From positions 1 to 24,344 of the forward strand of contig JAWXAY010000026.1 in NCBI GenBank assembly GCA_034439715.1: a DNA stretch of 24,344 bases, given 5' to 3'. Below, piece by piece: positions 9,756 through 24,344 of this stretch. Position 1 is the first letter of the stretch, and the number at the start of each line of letters is the position of its first letter. Under the pieces are notes generated by a model that saw only the letters and a program-made list of their open reading frames with translations, had not been told where the DNA came from and searched no databases. A program made the position numbers and the translations under genes. The DNA is from Pseudomonadota bacterium. GTDB taxonomy: Bacteria; Bdellovibrionota; Bdellovibrionia; Bdellovibrionales; SG-bin7.

Positions 9756-9800
9756 GTAACTGAATGTAGATAAAATGTGGATTTGACATGGGGGGTAAAA

Positions 9801-10256
9801 ATGAAGGCTCAAAATGTTGGCGAGACCATGACAAAACATCCCTACATTGCAAGTCGGAAAATGCTCGTGACGGACGCCGAACAGTTCATGAGAGAATGCA
9901 AAATCAGGCACCTACCGGTTATTGAAAGTGATAAAATTGTAGGTCTAGCTAGTGACCGCGACTTAAAAAAGGCTCTTGGCTTTAGGGGCCCTGGCACTTT
10001 GTTGGTTGAAGACGTAATGACGGCTAATCCTTATTGCATAAAAAAAGGGACAGCTTTGAGCGAAGTCGCAAGGGTAATGGCCGAGAAAAGAATCGGCTCG
10101 GCAATTATCGTTGATGAAAAAGGAGCTTCTCTCGGTATTTTTACTACAACTGATGGCATGAGAATCTTAAGTCAAATTCTTTCTAAAGGCACTTTGACTA
10201 AAAATGAGCTTCACGAAATTTGTTACGATGATTTTCCGGAATACATGAGCTGGTGA
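9801..10256 (+). CDS. CBS-domain (Bateman module) protein
   Basis: MTKHP...IRHLPV...SDRD...VMTANP...IGSAIIVD...GIFTTTD. Start moved to ATG 9801, which follows a G-rich RBS. Confidence 0.92.
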   Translation: MKAQNVGETMTKHPYIASRKMLVTDAEQFMRECKIRHLPVIESDKIVGLASDRDLKKALGFRGPGTLLVEDVMTANPYCIKKGTALSEVARVMAEKRIGSAIIVDEKGASLGIFTTTDGMRILSQILSKGTLTKNELHEICYDDFPEYMSW

Positions 10257-10263
10257 AAAATTT

Positions 10264-11196
10264 ATGAATAAAAAAACTATCATTTGGGCCATTAATCCCT
10301 ACGAAAAAAATAAAACTGTTCAACTTCATTCGGCACTTTTTTTACAGCGACTGGCAAAAGAGTTTGGCGCCTCAATCACCCCCACTTACGTTCTAAGCCC
10401 TCCCACTTTATTTTTACCAACAGATTATTTTATACCTCCAAATTTAGCGGACTTTGTTGGGAGCTCTAAAATAAAACTTCATAATATTCTCAAGAAACTG
10501 AAATTAAAATCGTTAGAGCCCATAACAGTGATTACCGATGAGAAGTCTAGTCTAAGAGAAAACGCTAAAACACTTATCAGGTTTGCAAAAAAACAGAATG
10601 CACTTTTTATTTTTGCACCCACTCATGCGAGGTCGGGATTACCTCGCTTCTGGTTAGGTAGTTTCGTCGAAAACTTGCTACTGTATTCCGATATTCCCGT
10701 ATTTACCATTAACCCCAAAATCAAGCTAAACGTTAGCATCTCGAGCGTAATTTACCCCACAGATTTAACATCAGCCTCAAAGGCAGCCTTCAAGACGTTT
10801 CTGCCACTAGCAAAAAAGTTGCGCGCTAAGGTTATTCTTTATCATCAACTTAGAAATTTTAGCGCAATCGAAGTGAATCCCGAGGGCCTTACCGCCGGTT
10901 CATGGGAATTTTATAAAGAAGAATTAGAAAATATAAGAGTTAAAAAGATGCAAGAGATTCAAATCTGGAAAGATCTCGCGCAGGGTGCTCATGTTGACTG
11001 TGATTTTGAACTCATACAATCTCGAAAATCGGTCGTTGATAGCATTCTCGACACGGTTAAGAAAAGAAAAATAAAATTAATTGCACTTAACACCTCGTCA
11101 GGCCCGGTTGAAAGTCTATTTGCTGGGGGAATTGCCCGCCAGCTCGTGAGATATTCGGCAGCGCCGGTTTGGGTGGTCCACAAGGAGGAACAATGA
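10264..11196 (+). CDS. Universal stress protein (tandem USP domains)
   Basis: THARSGLPRFWLGSFVENLLLYSDIPV; YPTDLTSAS; GGIARQLVRYSAAPVWVV. Confidence 0.92.
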   Translation: MNKKTIIWAINPYEKNKTVQLHSALFLQRLAKEFGASITPTYVLSPPTLFLPTDYFIPPNLADFVGSSKIKLHNILKKLKLKSLEPITVITDEKSSLRENAKTLIRFAKKQNALFIFAPTHARSGLPRFWLGSFVENLLLYSDIPVFTINPKIKLNVSISSVIYPTDLTSASKAAFKTFLPLAKKLRAKVILYHQLRNFSAIEVNPEGLTAGSWEFYKEELENIRVKKMQEIQIWKDLAQGAHVDCDFELIQSRKSVVDSILDTVKKRKIKLIALNTSSGPVESLFAGGIARQLVRYSAAPVWVVHKEEQ

Positions 11197-11561
11197 TTCC
11201 AGTAAAAGTAACTTACACCGATTTTGAGCCTTCTGAAGCACTAACGGCAAATATTGAAGACCGGTCTCAAAAATTGGAACTTTTTTTTGATAATATCCAG
11301 AAATGCAGTGTGGTGGTTTCACGCCCCCATAAACACAAAAAGCAAAAGTTTTATCACATTGAAGTCATACTTAAAGTGCCCGGAAAGACTTTAGTGGTAA
11401 ACCGCGAACCAGAGAAAAACGACGCCCATCATGACCCCTATATTTGCGTGAGAGATGCCTTTGAGGCTATGACTCGAATGCTCGAAGACTATGCCGCTAA
11501 AAAACGCGGTAACGTCAAGAAACACGAAACTCACGAGAGTCACGAGCCTAAAAGTGAATAG
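11193..11561 (+). CDS. HPF/RaiA family ribosome hibernation factor
   Basis: MIPVKVTYTDFEPSEAL...IQKCSVVV...HIEVILKVPG...DPYICVRDAF. ATG 11193 has an AAGGAGG RBS and an ATGA overlap with the USP stop. Confidence 0.88.
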   Translation: MIPVKVTYTDFEPSEALTANIEDRSQKLELFFDNIQKCSVVVSRPHKHKKQKFYHIEVILKVPGKTLVVNREPEKNDAHHDPYICVRDAFEAMTRMLEDYAAKKRGNVKKHETHESHEPKSE

Positions 11562-11568
11562 GCTGTGA

Positions 11569-11982
11569 TTAGGCTTCGCCGCGAATGACTTCGACTAAGG
11601 CGTTAAGTGCATCTGTGGCCGTAAATATTCCTACGATGCTTCCGGCCTCATCTTGTACCAGAGCGCTACCAATCTTATTTTCCGACATATAATAGGCGAC
11701 TTCGTCGATATTAGTCTCGGGGCTTACTGTATAAGGATTTGTCGACATCACATCTTCAGCAATAAAGGTCGACCACGATGGAAACTTTCCTAACACTTTA
11801 AGATCTCGATCACTAATAATTCCAACTGGCACGTTGCCTGAAATAACAGGTACATGTCGAATACCATGGTCTTTCATGACCCGACTGACTTCTTCCATTG
11901 AAGTATTCGCACTAACAGTAAATGGAGTTGGTGTTGTGAACTCATCAACGGGAATTCGGCGTATTTTCGATATTAATTCCAT
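11569..11982 (-). CDS. CBS-domain protein
   Basis: GIRHVPV, GIISDRD, VMSTNP, KIGSALV, GIFTATD. Confidence 0.92.
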   Translation of the reverse strand: MELISKIRRIPVDEFTTPTPFTVSANTSMEEVSRVMKDHGIRHVPVISGNVPVGIISDRDLKVLGKFPSWSTFIAEDVMSTNPYTVSPETNIDEVAYYMSENKIGSALVQDEAGSIVGIFTATDALNALVEVIRGEA

Positions 11983-12006
11983 TTTTTTATCCTCATTTTT
12001 GCAAGT

Positions 12007-12444
12007 TTAGATCATATACTCAGGAAAACGTGACCAGTTAATCTCATCGAGTTTCAACTTGGCATATTCAGAATCTTTTAACAAGCGGCTTAGAAGAAAA
12101 AGCGCATCGGTCGTAGTAAAAATACCTGCTACTTCACCCTTGTCATTTTCAATAATAGCGCAACCATATTTTTTTTCAGCCATTCTTTGTGCCACTTCGG
12201 CCAATAGCTGCCCGCGTACCACTTTGAAGGGATTTGCCACCATTACGTCTTCTACGCTGAGGTCGCTCTTACCTTTAATATCGCGCTCGCTGACTACCCC
12301 AATAACTTTATTTTTTTCGACAACGGGCAAATGCCTAATTCTGTATTTTTTCATCACTGAAGCGGCATTTTCAACTAATGTATTCTTAAAAACTACTTCT
12401 GGACAATAAGTCATGCTCTCGCCGACACTAATTTTATTAGACAT
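12007..12444 (-). CDS. CBS-domain protein
   Basis: RIRHLPVV, VVSERD, VMVANP, KYGCAII, GIFTTTD; GGAGGGAG RBS. Confidence 0.92.
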   Translation of the reverse strand: MSNKISVGESMTYCPEVVFKNTLVENAASVMKKYRIRHLPVVEKNKVIGVVSERDIKGKSDLSVEDVMVANPFKVVRGQLLAEVAQRMAEKKYGCAIIENDKGEVAGIFTTTDALFLLSRLLKDSEYAKLKLDEINWSRFPEYMI

Positions 12445-18990: not shown

Positions 18991-19082
18991 GCCCGGGTGG
19001 CGAAATTGGTAGACGCACAGGACTTAAAATCCTGAGGTTCCAGTAATGGGCCGTGTCAGTTCAAGTCTGACTCCGGGCACCA
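18991..19082 (+). tRNA. tRNA-Leu (anticodon TAA)
   Basis: Acceptor GCCCGGG/TCCGGGC plus A-CCA; D-arm GGCGAAATTGGTAGACGC; anticodon arm CAGGA-CTTAAAA-TCCTG; long variable arm; T-arm GTCAG-TTCAAGT-CTGAC. Confidence 0.97.
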
Positions 19083-19540
19083 CTTGTTACAGTACACGAA
19101 CCCACACGCCTTAAATTTGAAGAATCAGTCGGGGCATAGACCCCGAGCCTGATTTTAGTGGGATAAAGCTCTGCAAACTTAATTAGATTAGAAAAAATAG
19201 GCCGTCTGGTTTCTACAGAGACCTTTTCTAAGTTGTTTATGGCCCTTCTAACCCTAAAAAGTAATTCGTTCTGATCGATTGCACCTGATAAGGCACTTCT
19301 CGTTGGTAAAACAGATTTATTTTCTCCCATTATTTCATAAAGTCCTAATTCTGGTCCGTGAAAATACATGAATCTGTCATAACTCTTTTTAATTTGTGAA
19401 AGTTCAGAAATTTGGCAGAGCGATGGCAGGGCGACCCTGTAATCCGCACCCCTCCTTATTGTTAATTCTGGAGACTGTGCCAAAACAGGTAAAGCACTAA
19501 AACTAAATAAGAAGTAGACGCTCAAGCCAAATGTTTTCAT
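19061..19540 (-). CDS. Hypothetical, probably chimeric ORF: signal-peptide N-terminus fused to a serine-recombinase-like C-terminal remnant
   Basis: Starts MKTFGLSVYFLFSFSALPVLAQ; ends LEKVSVETRRPIFSNLIKFAELYPTKIRLGVY...GSCTVTSGARSQT, crossing the att core and stopping in the tRNA T-loop. Confidence 0.5.
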   Translation of the reverse strand: MKTFGLSVYFLFSFSALPVLAQSPELTIRRGADYRVALPSLCQISELSQIKKSYDRFMYFHGPELGLYEIMGENKSVLPTRSALSGAIDQNELLFRVRRAINNLEKVSVETRRPIFSNLIKFAELYPTKIRLGVYAPTDSSNLRRVGSCTVTSGARSQT

Positions 19541-19889
19541 TTAAAGTTCACGCTGCAACTAGCACCATTTCCACGAATCATAGTATTTAAAACGCCAAGT
19601 CCAATATTTTCAAAAAGGTTCGCAACTTCAGTTTTCTTAGCAGATGGGAATTATGCGACTTCCGACGAAAACGACTCTTTAAAGTCAAAAGCCCTGCATT
19701 ACTAGAAAGACCTCAATTTAGGTACCTGGCTGAATAATCATTCCCAGCGCTAAAACAGCTTAATTTGGCCAAGGAAGGATTCCTTTTTTGGTCACTTTAA
19801 AAGCATTGGCCCTCTCTATTAAGGTTTAAATTGAATTGAATTAACATTTTTATTGCTCATAAAAGTGTTCCATAAAGGAGTAAATATTT

Positions 19890-20342
19890 ATGATCAGGTC
19901 GAATTCTCTATTTCTATTAGTGATTGCATTCAGCTCCAACACATTTGCTGATATTATTTATGCGGAGATACTTTGCGCTCAATCCAAAGCGAAAAGCACA
20001 ATAGTAATCAATGAACGTATAAAGGAATTTACAAGTAGGCCCTTGAAGCACGGAGAAGTTGCCCATGTGTCTGCGCCTGGCATGTCAAACTGGAATTCAG
20101 AAAATCGGATATGTGTAACTTCATCAGTTCGTACTTCTACGGTAAATATTTCTAATGGACTTGGAGACTCAATAGTTCTCTGCGCCGCCGACAAGGCACG
20201 TAGTGAGGTTAGTATAAATCAGCAAATAGCAACTACAATTTCGAAATCACAGAGTAGTGGGTTTCCCATACTTGAAATTTCTCAACCGGCTCAGTCTAAT
20301 TGGAATTCGGAAAACCGAATCTGTGTGACACTTAGTTACTAA
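19890..20342 (+). CDS. Secreted hypothetical protein with an internally duplicated domain
   Basis: AAGGAG RBS, signal peptide, two copies of LCA...IN...SNWNSENRICVT that differ only synonymously in the 12-aa motif. Confidence 0.85.
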   Translation: MIRSNSLFLLVIAFSSNTFADIIYAEILCAQSKAKSTIVINERIKEFTSRPLKHGEVAHVSAPGMSNWNSENRICVTSSVRTSTVNISNGLGDSIVLCAADKARSEVSINQQIATTISKSQSSGFPILEISQPAQSNWNSENRICVTLSY

Positions 20343-20507
20343 ACTCATCGGTTTAAATTACCTAGTCAGATGGTCGATGGTCTCTTTAAAGCCATTGGCT
20401 GCCTTTAGGACAAACTACTAAAAAACTTTGATCTAGAACACATAGTTATCAAAATTTATTCGCTTCTTCCGGAATTACTGTGATACGCCTTAAATTATAA
20501 ATCCAAA

Positions 20508-20963
20508 TTATGGAAAAGATCTAATAAGAAATTTCGACTTACTAGGAAAGGCAGTAAAAGCGCGCGACATAGCCAAAGCTATATCATCTGTGTCTAACGT
20601 CAAAATCTCAACGGGGTCAAAATCAAGCGAGACGCCGCCCATATAAAAATCTGCGAAGTCATATTCGTTTTTATGAGTCGATTCACAGTAGCGTTCATAG
20701 AAAGCCCTCTCTCTTTTCTCATCAGTAGCATAAAGCTCAATGTGGAGATTACTTAAGTTCCTGCGGATATCTTTGGGCGAAATAGTTTTTCGGGTCTTAT
20801 AGAACAATTCGACCAAACAGGGCGTAACGATGTGTCTCGATGCATGAGGAAATTGATCGGCGTATTGAAACGCTTGCTCGGCTATTTTTTCTTCGGTTTT
20901 ATTTTTGTTAAAAAAGGCCACCAAAATGGAGGTATCAAAGAATAAGGCCTTTGGGTTACTCAA
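20508..20963 (-). CDS. PIN-domain (VapC-like) ribonuclease toxin
   Basis: FFDTSILVAFF, CLVEL, DFADFY, ILTLDTDD: the conserved PIN acidic residues. Confidence 0.85.
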   Translation of the reverse strand: MSNPKALFFDTSILVAFFNKNKTEEKIAEQAFQYADQFPHASRHIVTPCLVELFYKTRKTISPKDIRRNLSNLHIELYATDEKRERAFYERYCESTHKNEYDFADFYMGGVSLDFDPVEILTLDTDDIALAMSRAFTAFPSKSKFLIRSFP

Positions 20964-21253
20964 AAAAGAGAGTCCTTCACTTTTTTCCCCGCGTTCTCGC
21001 CGAGATCGACCTTTACCAATTTAGATGTGTCGGTGCCGCCCTCAGATAAAATGCCAAGACGCGAACGAATAACCGATTCTTTTGCATCGGGCGATAGGTG
21101 TGGAAGGTCGGTTTCGACTCGCTTACGAATGTCTTTTCCCATCTGTTCAATCTTCTTTCGATAGTCGGGAGCGCTAGCATTCAATCGGTTCTTCTCAAGC
21201 TCTGACATCTGGTCCACCTTATGAGACTGTCTACTTACCTTAATTTCGGACAC
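20960..21253 (-). CDS. Putative antitoxin, family not recognised
   Basis: 97 aa, charged, directly upstream of the PIN gene with a 4-bp start/stop overlap; GTG start uncertain. Confidence 0.6.
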   Translation of the reverse strand: MSEIKVSRQSHKVDQMSELEKNRLNASAPDYRKKIEQMGKDIRKRVETDLPHLSPDAKESVIRSRLGILSEGGTDTSKLVKVDLGENAGKKVKDSLF

Positions 21254-21288
21254 TTTTCGACAGCTAAATCGTTCAAATTCAATATAAT

Positions 21289-21311
21289 GGGTCTAATAAC
21301 AAATTAGACCC
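21289..21311. promoter_or_regulatory. Palindromic operator candidate upstream of the TA operon
   Basis: GGGTCTAAT-aacaa-ATTAGACCC, perfect 9-bp arms. Confidence 0.55.
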
Positions 21312-21340
21312 TTATAGTTAATATATGCAAACTATAGACC

Positions 21341-21470
21341 TATTGGGGACCATTCTTAATCCGACGTCGTTTTGCCAGCTCCGCGAGATTAAATCTTGGT
21401 CCCCGCCACTGAATTGGGTATTCTTCAACCCATGTCAGTAGTTCTTCCACCATAGGGCCACGGGCACCAC
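21341..21470 (+). repeat. 130-bp direct repeat copy 1 (P-arm plus core of the attP-like junction)
   Basis: 121/130 identical and ungapped against 23796-23925; ends in the tRNA 3'-end sequence CGGGCACCAC. Confidence 0.95.
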
Positions 21471-21509
21471 TTCATTGAGTAGACGAACTAGTAAGTTTAA
21501 AATTTTGGC

Positions 21510-23675
21510 CTACTGTTTTCTATAATATTGCGCCGAAAACTTTTTTAATTCTTCCTGCGCGCTGTCCAAAAATTTTTTTGCTGATTCAGCACTCTCGGTG
21601 GCCCACGGGGGCACTGCCCCCTCAAACCAGTGAGGATCTCTTACTTTCCCTATTAATTCAGTAGTAGTCAGTCCCTCAAACTCCCCCCCTTTCCTGATGA
21701 TCTTTTCGGTAGCACCCAACTCGTGGGTTGTAACAAAATATGAAAATTCAAAAGCGGAGCGCTGATCGTTGGGTAATCGGTCACGATACACTAGATAGTT
21801 TTTTCGTAATTCTACCCTCTGCGCTTTTGAAATATTAGAGTAATCATTAAAGAATCTTTCGTTACGAGCATGTACGTGATCGTGACGGTCGAAGTGATCA
21901 GGCCACATATCACGTCCATCGAACATTCCATTTTTACTAATTTTCCCTATGACATAACTGTCGGATCCATAAATTGAGTTAACCGCTGCTATCCCCATGT
22001 CTCCGTTAATTACCGGAATTTTCACTTGCATAGGAAAATCATCCGCGAATCTTAGAATTGGAGAAAAATAAGATGGATCCTGGTTTTTTGCTTTTCGAAA
22101 AAGCTCGTCGGTGCGCCAAGCGTCGGTGTCCATCACTCGGCGAACAAAGGCATCGTCAAGGTCACCTGCAATGCTTGTCCTTTTGCTCGCCGGGGTCATA
22201 AGAACGGATAGTCGATAGTTATATTCATTAAACCACTCATAACTTACTTTTTTATCTTTCACCCTGGCTGCAGCCTCCGCCGCAAATTCATCAAGAATCT
22301 TAAGTCGCCCCGCCACCTCAATATCTTGGCTTTCAATACTCTTCCTCGCAAAATTTAATGTGGGCTCGATTTTTTTTTCGAACTCAGGTATATGAGTCAT
22401 TATTGGATCAATCTTTCGAGCTCGCAGCAGCTTGGCAAGTTCTACTACTTCTTTGGCATCATCGCTTCCTACCATTAGGCGCTCCAGTATAACAGTGTCC
22501 TTTGTAACTTTTGGTCCCTTTGGCTTAAGTCCCTTCTCGGCTTGGGCAACTCGTTCAATGGCTACGGCAACTTCACCTTTTGAAACTGAATCGGTTATCT
22601 TCTTAACTTTACTTATTTTTCCGACTGCACCAATGGGAACGAACCCCGTTCCTATTTCAGCCAAGATACGACAGATGACCTTCACTTTCGCTTCGGTCTT
22701 ATAACAAATAAATTCTTTATACTGATTTTCCACAAAGGAAACGAAAGCACTTGATTTGTCTTTTTCAGTGGCAAAAAAAGTACCCAGAGCCGCAGAGGCT
22801 TGGAGAGCATGATACACAGTAGGAACGATTGGTCCCGCAACACTGTAGGCCAATTTCATGTATACCGAGTCTGTATTTATAGTAAAAGCATCAAGCATCG
22901 AACGCAAAGTATCCTTACCAGCGCCACCACATTCGCGACCTACAGATTCCCACGATATAAAAGTTTTTCGTTCCTCTGGTGTTGCTAGTTTTTCTGCAGG
23001 GATTTTGTCGGAACTGCATTGGGGGTCGTCATTTTGTGACGCTGTGCTTGGCGAAACCGTAGCTCCGCTTGGTTTCGTTTCGTTCGCAGAGGCAATAGAG
23101 ATTAAGTCTTTAAACAAAAATTCTAGATTATTTATATTGGCGGATTTGGTTCCAGATTCAAACGCCGGACTTAGCACACTTCTAAGTATACTTTCTAAAT
23201 CTATAAAAGTTTTGGCATTATCATTAGATACAGAAATCAAACTTACAAGATGTCTCTGCCGCTCAAAATGAAACTCAACAACTTTTGCGTTATGTTTTTT
23301 AACTGTGTACAAAATTTTTGAAATAAAGATGGGTGTTTTACCAATCTGCATTTCAATCATGGTCTCACTACGATGAAAGCCATCATTTTGGTCCGCGACG
23401 AAATCGCGAATTCTAAAAGCCGCAGCCTGCAAATCACTTTTATTGAGGTTTTTACTTATTGGTTCCGAAGTAATATAAAGAGCTCCCGTTTTCCCAAAGA
23501 CGGAAAACAAGGACCTTTGCATCGTCGGCTGGAGCTGGAGGCCAAGCTTTTTCGCGGATATTTCAATTTTGTTTATAAAGGTGCTTTGATCGGCATCAGA
23601 TAAAGTCGGGGAAAAACAAACTGAGATTACCATTAGTAAAAAAAGTTTTGGCATCTTAGAAAAACATAAGGGCAC
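21510..23675 (-). CDS. Large secreted hypothetical protein, multi-domain, with C-terminal His-rich motifs
   Basis: 721 aa; GGAGG RBS before GTG; signal-like N-terminus; Cys-containing middle; FDRHDHVH and FVTTHE near the C-terminus. Confidence 0.8.
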   Translation of the reverse strand: MPLCFSKMPKLFLLMVISVCFSPTLSDADQSTFINKIEISAKKLGLQLQPTMQRSLFSVFGKTGALYITSEPISKNLNKSDLQAAAFRIRDFVADQNDGFHRSETMIEMQIGKTPIFISKILYTVKKHNAKVVEFHFERQRHLVSLISVSNDNAKTFIDLESILRSVLSPAFESGTKSANINNLEFLFKDLISIASANETKPSGATVSPSTASQNDDPQCSSDKIPAEKLATPEERKTFISWESVGRECGGAGKDTLRSMLDAFTINTDSVYMKLAYSVAGPIVPTVYHALQASAALGTFFATEKDKSSAFVSFVENQYKEFICYKTEAKVKVICRILAEIGTGFVPIGAVGKISKVKKITDSVSKGEVAVAIERVAQAEKGLKPKGPKVTKDTVILERLMVGSDDAKEVVELAKLLRARKIDPIMTHIPEFEKKIEPTLNFARKSIESQDIEVAGRLKILDEFAAEAAARVKDKKVSYEWFNEYNYRLSVLMTPASKRTSIAGDLDDAFVRRVMDTDAWRTDELFRKAKNQDPSYFSPILRFADDFPMQVKIPVINGDMGIAAVNSIYGSDSYVIGKISKNGMFDGRDMWPDHFDRHDHVHARNERFFNDYSNISKAQRVELRKNYLVYRDRLPNDQRSAFEFSYFVTTHELGATEKIIRKGGEFEGLTTTELIGKVRDPHWFEGAVPPWATESAESAKKFLDSAQEELKKFSAQYYRKQ

Positions 23676-23795: not shown

Positions 23796-23925
23796 TATTA
23801 GGGACCTTTCTCAACCCGACGTCGTTTTGCCAGCTCCGCAAGATTAATCCTTGGTTCCCGCCACTGAATTGGGTATGCTTCAACCCATGTCAGTAGTTCT
23901 TCCACCATAGGGCCACGGGCACCAC
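23796..23925 (+). repeat. 130-bp direct repeat copy 2 (attR-like junction)
   Basis: Matches 21341-21470; the sequence after the core is unrelated to that after the other two cores. Confidence 0.95.
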
Positions 23926-23928
23926 ACA

Positions 23929-23954
23929 ATATCTGATTTCGAGATATCGGATAT
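23929..23954 (+). terminator. Hairpin directly after the last core, possibly the original tRNA 3' trailer
   Basis: ATATCTGAT-ttcgagat-ATCGGATAT, 9-bp stem with one G-U pair; only a short T run follows. Confidence 0.4.
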
Positions 23955-23975
23955 CAACTTTAAATAAGGAGACTT

Positions 23976-24344
23976 ATGAAAAACATTATTGCACTTTTCA
24001 TCCTTGGCTTTTCTCTCAATTCCCTTGCCGACTGTATGGAGAATTCTAATTACCCTACCGTTAGCAAAACCGATCTACAAAAAATCGCCGAAAACAAATC
24101 TGCATTTATCATCGATGTAAATTCTGATGACAGTTACAAAAAATCTCATGTCCCCGGCGCCGTTCATTTTGATGCGATCGAAAAAACTTTCGCAACAAGT
24201 CTTCCTGCTGACAAAAATGCCGAGATCATCACGTACTGTGGATCTACAATGTGCTCGGCGTGGCAGAAAGCCGCACGCAAAGCATGTAAGCTTGGCTACA
24301 AAAATATTAAACACTTCAAAGAAGGTATCGCGGGCTGGAATAAG
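23976..24344 (+). CDS. Exported rhodanese-like domain protein (3' end outside window)
   Basis: Translated by hand: MKNIIALFILGFSLNSLA...FIIDVNS...SHVPGAVH...IITYCGSTMCSAW...LGYKNIKHFKEGIAGW; TAAGGAG RBS. Confidence 0.9.
   Translation, partial: MKNIIALFILGFSLNSLADCMENSNYPTVSKTDLQKIAENKSAFIIDVNSDDSYKKSHVPGAVHFDAIEKTFATSLPADKNAEIITYCGSTMCSAWQKAARKACKLGYKNIKHFKEGIAGWNK

Follow-up and report, generated by a model that had tools for sequence, protein, structure and literature searches.

A decayed tandem array at a tRNA-Leu gene and a family of serine recombinase genes that read through attP

Positions 1 to 24,344 of contig JAWXAY010000026.1, called the window here, belong to a Bdellovibrionota-type genome. 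Small integrative mobilizable elements have almost certainly inserted there one behind another at a tRNA-Leu gene, and the resulting tandem array is decayed. In the family to which these elements belong, the gene for the large serine recombinase (LSR) has no stop codon before the element's own attachment (att) site, attP, and continues across the crossover. All that the window retains is att arms, the tRNA terminator, a stump of the LSR gene and cargo. In intact relatives the codons beyond the crossover form a start-less tail with a helix-turn-helix (HTH) domain which, judged from its substitutions, is under purifying selection, and part of the same DNA is complementary to the leader of the LSR gene. 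This suggests a switch acting at the RNA level as much as one acting through the protein tail.

Results

The preliminary description of the window, made from its letters alone, had proposed that an ancestral recombinase gene spanned attP. Intact relatives bear this out: rather than stopping before the core or facing frameshifted arms, the LSR gene was open through the core and in frame with the distal tail in 12 of 14 complete elements. These 14 derive from 16 rows pairing an LSR with a tail, from which four were excluded (two cut by contig ends, one small resolvase, one frameshifted LSR). Eight of the remaining 12 were flagged as open and in frame, three were judged so by eye from a same-frame end at tRNA fragments and one (L103) has an early stop; an element on contig C52 of the window's own genome (in frame) and L042 (one base out) complete the set. 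Among 40 regions added afterwards there were 14 LSR matches. Eight of these were intact beside a tRNA or tmRNA gene (tRNA-Leu, -Arg, -Ala and tmRNA) and all were open in frame, giving seven of seven new elements since one repeats L091. The other six reach a contig end (three), are broken upstream with the 3' part in frame (two) or are interrupted by an insertion, IS3-like by look (one). All 18 further homologues of the C-terminal part of the protein P0009 extend to the core dipeptide. Two members of the family, L172 and L183, are inserted at tmRNA.

One LSR is documented with either C-terminus. Over 563 aa P0007 and P0009 do not differ, after which P0007 continues as antisense tRNA-Leu and P0009 as the tail. 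The integrated form, P0007, keeps the resolvase, recombinase and zinc-ribbon domains and loses only the tail; PF00239, PF07508 and PF13408 (Resolvase, Recombinase, zinc-ribbon) score above cut-off in L017, P0007 and P0009. An integrated LSR ends in a few residues derived from antisense tRNA, and the tail, which has no start codon, sits at the far end of the element. Against the NCBIfam equivalogs P0009 scored 157 bits for CcrB (cut-off 900) and 135 for XisF (cut-off 375), so it is not SCCmec CcrA/B/C or XisF. Natural fusions of LSR and tail are found in P0003, P0006, P0009, P0093 and L066, those of L066 and P0006 being chromosomal tandem junctions and the others perhaps so too. Phage and plasmid collections gave only distant LSRs, with the tail uncovered in the 10 matches listed for each.

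The window retains the end of such a gene. As first described, open reading frame (ORF) 19540-19061 crosses core 1 and terminates with GSCTVTS-GAR-SQT. This terminus lies within tRNA-Leu(TAA), antisense to its 3' end. Residues 81-155 are 77% identical to the C-terminus of the L017 LSR (526 aa, from a Bdellovibrionales genome), which has all three LSR domains and whose gene itself runs into tRNA-Leu(GAG); over 52 aligned codons the two differ by 23 silent changes and 5 residue replacements. No Pfam or NCBIfam family matched the ORF, only residues 81-155 aligned to LSRs, and the N-terminal 81 residues had no match in 150 other genomes of the order. On these alignments the ORF is an LSR remnant and not a member of the LSR family, and because it joins a signal-peptide-like N-terminus to an LSR stump, excision of unit 1 would yield no recombinase. 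A terminator-like hairpin for the tRNA lies inside the stump and is a likely reason for its retention. Elsewhere the genome, at 95.7% completeness, carries full-length LSRs at tRNA-Arg, -Ala and -Asn and one broken LSR, with none at this tRNA-Leu. The stump falls in one LSR subfamily and the window's arms group with elements whose LSRs belong to another, so the pair that they form may never have been cognate. An intact element of the family, with a full LSR and the small upstream gene, stands at tRNA-Arg(CCT) of the same genome (G000:C52:34720-41332); it has a 70-aa HTH tail in frame at the core and a weak tail-leader match.

The tandem array is laid out by repeats of the block CGGGCACCAC. Core 1 is the 3' end of the tRNA gene, and further copies at 21461 and 23916 each terminate a 130-bp arm (21341-21470 and 23796-23925, 93% identical). 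From the core onward neither arm meets a stop in the GAR frame, as had been reported, for 42 codons (stop 21340-21342) and 41 codons (stop 23798-23800). Nine codons differ between the arms, two silently, six with a changed residue and one with a new stop, and nonsynonymous (pN, 6/91.7) and synonymous (pS, 2/31.3) differences per site are equal, in line with the earlier remark that seven of nine differences are non-silent, with no current purifying selection on the window's tails. Because shuffling leaves an arm open in a given frame (the 42-codon frame) in 11% of cases, the open arm of the window says little alone, and it is the family that lifts the case above chance. Core 2 has both P and P' motifs and therefore represents a complete attP-like junction; at core 3 the LSR-side motif is missing.

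Metagenome contigs L116 and L117, near-identical to the window, link its end to contig C16 of the same genome (G000), on which a rhodanese and an ftsK-like gene are followed by a more worn arm and a fourth core at G000:C16:2401. After those genes C16 also holds 86 bp copied from unit 1, namely from its left end. The segment C16:2310-2486, considered as a stray attP, was dropped, being the fourth junction of the same array. A candidate circle of unit 1, a single backward joint (21472 to 19094) present in four of four runs, was likewise rejected because its letters match the chromosomal copy on C16. The search of viral contigs confirmed none of 49 candidates, and a promoter scan of the array returned 10 sites against 11.2 expected. 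The rhodanese unit (window 23916-24344) has a 95% copy directly behind tRNA-Arg(TCG) (G000:C79:1-494, C55:8430-12530), followed by an arm fragment and, 4 kb further, by another attP-like junction; since tRNA-Arg(TCG) has the same TGGTGC core, units seem to move between tRNAs.

Counted from the core, GAAC stands at +20 in all 18 tRNA sides of the family and at +25 in 53 of its 61 arms, and GTTC at -19 in 13 of 18 LSR sides. These positions place the centre at the GC of TGGTGC and imply a 5-bp shift of the LSR zinc-domain motif between attP and attB. A zinc-domain motif that lies closer to the centre in attB than in attP, by 5 bp, has been described (PMC3783163), and by analogy with that account GAAC/GTTC is probably the zinc-domain site. 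Cores were located by anchoring on tails; true cores are only 6-11 bp, and for this reason an automatic longest-repeat search gave false ones.

The tails themselves were collected as 77 matches in 66 loci, of which nine were dropped for indels, stops or drift of anchor residues and 61 unique tails kept. Conservation starts at the core in 50 of the 61, identity upstream being at background. The frame is open for at least 60 codons in 48 of the 61, and the other two frames in 1 and 0. Over 184 non-independent pairs, pN/pS was 0.34 for codons 4-38 and 0.26 for codons 39-64, compared with 1.1-1.6 in the other frames. Most relatives have tails of 67-100 aa that include the HTH. No ATG, GTG or TTG occurs within codons 1-28 in 21 of 47 long tails, and an ATG or GTG stands at codon 6-7 in some tails, including those of the window. 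Gene callers list the tail as a free protein of 60-200 aa: a tail profile matched 169 representatives (E 1e-10 or better), most of them short predictions starting at the same glycine, and the called N-termini ahead of that glycine were mostly unrelated (3 similar pairs among 41 prefixes).

The model of a long tail predicted a three-helix HTH plus one helix (helices 28-37, 42-49 and 53-65) at a predicted local distance difference test (pLDDT) of 78; a single-sequence fold of P0009 (pLDDT 36) was discarded. Pfam Sigma70_r4_2 scored above cut-off in one of eight long tails scanned. A fold search with the tail matched mostly HTH proteins, none at E 0.001, the best hit of a PDB sequence search with the tail profile had E 0.15, and an atlas search gave HTH clusters at 0.86-0.89, which we treat as leads only. 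The preliminary description had further proposed a long tail in the circle and a short one when integrated. This fits the family but not the window, where the 41-42 aa tails are deletions that stop before helix 2 of the HTH, the ORF has no catalytic domain and the arms are possibly non-cognate.

The window's arms end at about +111 to +113, ahead of the HTH and just after a segment that is complementary to the LSR leader in intact relatives. Eight HTH-less arms require at least three losses on a tree of the 61 arms, a single origin being rejected by the approximately unbiased test (p-AU 0.0006); the tree rests on 108 columns and many of its forks are unresolved. Both window arms fall in a group of six (support 93/81) with L091 and L120, which lack the HTH and whose LSRs are full-length sisters, so the HTH can be lost. 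All eight HTH-less arms retain the pairing segment. Within it, tail codons 29-33 are nearly fixed at silent sites (32 tails less than 80% alike), and CTG GCA is kept in 26 and 25 of the 29 more divergent tails. The clustering of end points is suggestive only, because shorter arms exist (second copies in L086 and L121, the C55 fragment) and one search pattern covered codons 29-33. The idea that the fixed motif mimics the D arm of tRNA-Leu was dropped, the same motif being present in tails at tRNA-Arg, tRNA-Ala and tmRNA. Several elements (L087, L089, L091, L056) have a conserved 60-aa ORF after the tail, and the HTH deletions in L087, L089 and L091 fuse the tail stump to it at differing points.

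Intact elements share a backbone of a membrane ORF, a Replic_Relax relaxase, an ORF of 57-71 aa overlapping the LSR start, and the LSR. The small ORF contains, at a distance of about 60-100 nt upstream of where the LSR begins, the reverse complement of the motif fixed in the tails. Gapped alignment gave 35-45 nt of complementarity, with bulges, to tail positions +60 to +105, with element-specific changes on both sides; L061, L160 and L173 are the clearest cases. The cognate tail-leader duplex was better than expected in 22 of 23 elements and the best of its row in 11, and 0 of 100,000 permutations was as good. Among the eight elements lacking an octamer shared by the others, the cognate partner was favoured in seven and ranked first in five. 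As far as sequence can tell, then, live elements combine a gene fusion at attP, the order small gene, LSR, core, and a tail-leader complementarity that covaries by element. The window has no leader remaining.

When leaders were folded alone, the 3' part of the segment was predicted to pair with bases just ahead of the LSR start, with loop lengths that vary widely; the sliding-block control for these folds was weak, containing only blocks farther from the ribosome site. The modelled probability that the ribosome site is unpaired rose from 0.31 for the leader alone to 0.50 with the tail, increasing in 11 of 13 cases, and was 0.33 with the HTH-coding part and 0.32 with shuffled tails. In these models, and only there, a hairpin covers the LSR ribosome site and is displaced by the tail.

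A docking of the small upstream protein on the LSR likewise appears only in models. The complex of this protein with LSR residues 130-515 of L061 scored 0.72 (runs 0.72, 0.72 and 0.38; best of three controls 0.00), with at least 40% of contacts in common between runs and a partner pLDDT of at least 47. Solved pairs reached this mark in 116 of 157 cases and mismatched pairs in 2 of 215, counts that hold only roughly for the alignments used. Modelled contacts fall at LSR residues 345-388 and 452-511, the end of the zinc domain and segments around the coiled coil, a region bound by the recombination directionality factor (RDF) of SPbeta in the published account (PMC11722253). The model supports the small protein as a candidate RDF docking on the LSR, and its pass may stem from likeness to solved integrase-RDF complexes.

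The features of the array are collected in Table 1. Between the stop of tail 1, 30 nt away, and the toxin-antitoxin-like pair of unit 1 lies a 9-bp hairpin (21289-21311), terminator-like on both strands. The 721-aa protein of unit 2 gave weak PsbP/DcrB-like structure matches in its N-terminal part, and the full-length protein pointed weakly to a TNT-domain cluster (score 0.77, 35% of it). The ftsK-like gene of unit 3 (G000:C16:406-2235, 609 aa) has a second, 41% identical copy on C11. Outside the array, positions 9777-12444 contain inverted DNA repeats among three genes, which we take to be CBS-pair-like genes flanking universal-stress-like and ribosome-hibernation-like genes, and positions 411-2837 on the minus strand hold what are presumably adjoining aldolase-like (DeoC-type) and aldehyde dehydrogenase-like genes.

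Table 1 Features of the tandem array and its cargo, in window coordinates
Feature	Position	Strand	Remark
tRNA-Leu(TAA), integration target	18991..19082	+	Sole tRNA gene of the window; 3' end is the tRNA half of the att site
Chimeric 159-aa ORF	19061..19540	-	Signal-peptide-like N-terminal 80 aa without relatives, plus LSR remnant; no catalytic domain
Core 1, shared block CGGGCACCAC	19074..19083		Crossover probably at GC of TGGTGC (read on the minus strand)
3' remnant (75 codons) of LSR gene	19076..19300	-	L017/P0007 subfamily, 77% identity
P' half-site of element	19083..19101	-	GTTC at -19 from core, zinc-domain-type motif
Terminator-like hairpin for tRNA	19129..19146	+	Inside LSR coding remnant; similar hairpin in L017-L020
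Unit 1 cargo, 150-aa secreted-looking protein	19890..20342	+	Twice-repeated cysteine-containing motif; no family
Unit 1 cargo, 97-aa ORF and 151-aa PIN-like ORF	20508..21253	-	Probable toxin-antitoxin pair; PIN E=0.006, below Pfam cut-off
Arm 1 and core 2	21340..21470	-	P half-site (GAAC at +25); 42-codon tail cut before HTH
Arm 1 segment +60 to +105	21364..21409	-	Counterpart in intact relatives complementary to LSR leader; fixed codons GAG CTG GCA
P' half-site of unit 2	21470..21488	-	GTTC at -19
Unit 2 cargo, 721-aa secreted-looking protein	21510..23675	-	No family; ends before core 2
Arm 2 and core 3	23796..23925	-	41-codon tail cut before HTH; no P' motif beyond core 3
Rhodanese gene opening unit 3	23976..24344	+	Unit continues on contig C16 (ftsK-like gene, worn arm, core 4)

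Discussion

We propose that live elements of this family carry an RNA switch, in which translation of the LSR is coupled to that of the RDF candidate when the element is integrated and is opened by the tail in the circle, and we regard the chances of this model as evenly balanced. In the integrated state the hairpin would be closed and the LSR would be made only through coupling to translation of the RDF gene, so that it would be scarce, short at its C-terminus and accompanied by RDF, and excision would be possible. In the circle the LSR transcript would carry the tail, which would pair into the RDF reading frame and free the LSR ribosome site; the LSR would then be in excess of RDF and HTH-bearing, and integration would be favoured. 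The balance of LSR and RDF in the two states, and with it the direction of the switch, is what we infer from the layout. The HTH may serve as an accessory DNA-binding or autoregulatory domain that was lost in some lineages. Rather more tentatively, with the balance tipped slightly against it, we suggest that recombination itself builds the switch: the tail added by excision would uncouple the LSR from the RDF, the element would read its own state at translation, and the stripped units of the window would keep exactly the arm length needed for the switch and attP.

Several observations weigh against this picture. No excised circle of the window's units was seen among the contigs. P0009, the long form of the LSR known with both ends, may itself be a chromosomal tandem junction and no circle, because an element with a 92% similar tail has an LSR only 37% like P0009, and L103 and L042 are exceptions to the frame rule. 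Tails were found by protein similarity, a selection that favours open, conserved frames. For the pairing, 15 of the 23 elements had been picked for the shared octamer, and the permutation p-values overstate because the elements are kin. In only 14 of 23 elements does the leader outdo all other stretches of the same element, and L082A, L155 and the C52 element of the window's own genome have little or no cognate preference. Arm 1 of the window pairs with L066-type leaders (-63.0 kcal/mol) but poorly with the L017 leader (-34.6). Support for the consensus leader hairpin is modest and comes from a rough alignment, and the pairing would have to bridge about 1.8 kb of translated message. Mismatches, finally, have no G-U bias toward the LSR strand (33 vs 28), and since the wobbles lack strand bias they do not distinguish RNA, single-stranded DNA and twin protein sites.

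It is unlikely, though a serious contender, that the switch is of the Mx8 type and works through protein alone, the long LSR-HTH being an efficient integrase or a self-repressor, and the tail and leader sequences DNA operators or arm-type sites that covary through one protein. The purifying selection on the HTH codons, the predicted three-helix fold with its one Sigma70_r4_2 match, the wobbles without strand bias and the fixation of CTG GCA in divergent tails, even where the leader has no octamer, are all expected if this were so. Yet L091 and L120 keep cognate complementarity without an HTH, and a long, bulged match that includes the hairpin arm over the ribosome site suits base pairing better than an operator.

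We think it improbable that the complementarity serves as single-stranded DNA in relaxase-driven transfer, folding the incoming strand and bringing the attP arm to the integrase leader with no translational role. The elements do carry a Replic_Relax (MOB_C-type) relaxase (PF13814 above cut-off; a cluster of 7 elements), and the lack of strand bias would fit, but in individual folds the partner segment in the leader falls on the arm covering the LSR ribosome site, and L068, which has no gene of the relaxase cluster, still keeps its cognate match. More improbable again is a tail that acts as a built-in RDF, the fused form favouring excision and keeping the element circular as engineered fusions might; C-terminal integrase-RDF fusions are described as catalysing attL x attR and reducing attP x attB (PMC5737554), but an element entering a new host can make only the long form and yet has to integrate, the LSR partner in the models is already a separate small protein, and the tail resembles a DNA-binding HTH. 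Least credible of all is a separate small HTH regulator with its own start that shares the LSR frame incidentally, for which the gene calls and the ATG or GTG at codon 6-7 of some tails could be cited, but which sits badly with the missing conserved start, conservation that begins exactly at the core, the unrelated called N-termini and the five natural fusions.

The attP-inside-integrase-gene layout is already known from Mx8, SSV1 and Dehalococcoides dsiB. DsiB is described as a CcrB-like LSR of ~540 aa; its gene invariably overlaps attL and has no stop codon within the island (McMurdie et al. 2011, PMC3146451). The same account describes tandem arrays of ssrA islands, many without an integration module, and suggests that DsiB attains full function only on the circle or behind a neighbouring island. 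The present family resembles these islands in an LSR gene over the att site, in tandem arrays and, for L172 and L183, in the tmRNA target. It differs in its module: that of DsiB, as published, has six genes including DsiA (a second small recombinase), ParB and Mom and targets ssrA, unlike the membrane ORF, Replic_Relax relaxase, 60-70 aa RDF candidate and mostly tRNA 3' ends found here. The DsiB description used for this comparison names no HTH tail, selection test or RNA pairing.

In Mx8 and Mx9, attP is reported to lie inside the integrase coding sequence, so that integration gives a new 3' end and altered activity, termed a "molecular switch" (PMC6070905). Those are phage tyrosine recombinases, whereas the family described here has a serine recombinase on a mobilizable element of 3.5-15 kb, a 6-11 bp core and a separate RDF candidate. 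The archaeal 'suicidal' integrases (SSV1, pTN3, pT26-2), with genes split by their own att site and chimeras formed through exchanged halves (PMC8371274), are likewise of the tyrosine family as described there, and their catalytic part is separated from the start to leave inactive fragments; the serine recombinases here keep all three domains. Phage LSRs (LI/A118, phiC31, Bxb1, SPbeta) share the three-domain architecture and 5-bp motif shift in the account of PMC3783163, and the small partner modelled on the zinc domain and segments at the coiled-coil base in that of PMC11722253. In those two accounts phage LSR genes are not described as crossing attP, and the half-site is 25 bp, compared with a conserved arm of ~110 bp here.

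Among mobilizable elements, streptococcal IME_Class_8 is described as pairing a serine integrase with a PF13814/MobC relaxase in a compact module that encodes a VirD4 coupling protein (Coluzzi et al. 2017, PMC5357655). A similar relaxase is present in L056 (27 bits, PF13814 cut-off 25.3), with homologues in 7 of 14 elements and none in the window. Among the listed ORFs of the 14 elements, clustering and length, with no family search, revealed no shared long ATPase-like ORF of the VirD4 kind. A 2015 database paper stated that serine recombinases were not known to target tRNA genes (PMC4383910), to which small-family phiRSM (PMC3816273) is an earlier exception. So far as their available text goes, PMC12884075, 10.1101/2021.11.05.467528, PMC13626063 and PMC12286644 have no bearing on the layout. 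What appears new is the putative tail-leader pairing with element-specific covariation, together with the HTH tail, the literature search having been aimed at the layout and not at the pairing.

The window itself is only a relic, and it is the HTH tail and the covarying tail-leader match that set its family apart from the known layout. As the tail profile matches 143 of 390 genomes of the class (weak matches counted as scored), the family is a frequent vehicle there for acquiring genes next to tRNAs, at their ends. Anyone mining recombinases as tools will obtain from an integrated copy of this family the LSR in its short form, ending in tRNA-derived residues. An integrating element needs its integrase without RDF on entry and both proteins when integrated, which is usually ascribed to phage-style transcription control. 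Elements of 3.5-15 kb have little room for such control, and a switch built by the crossover itself, if true, would answer that need.

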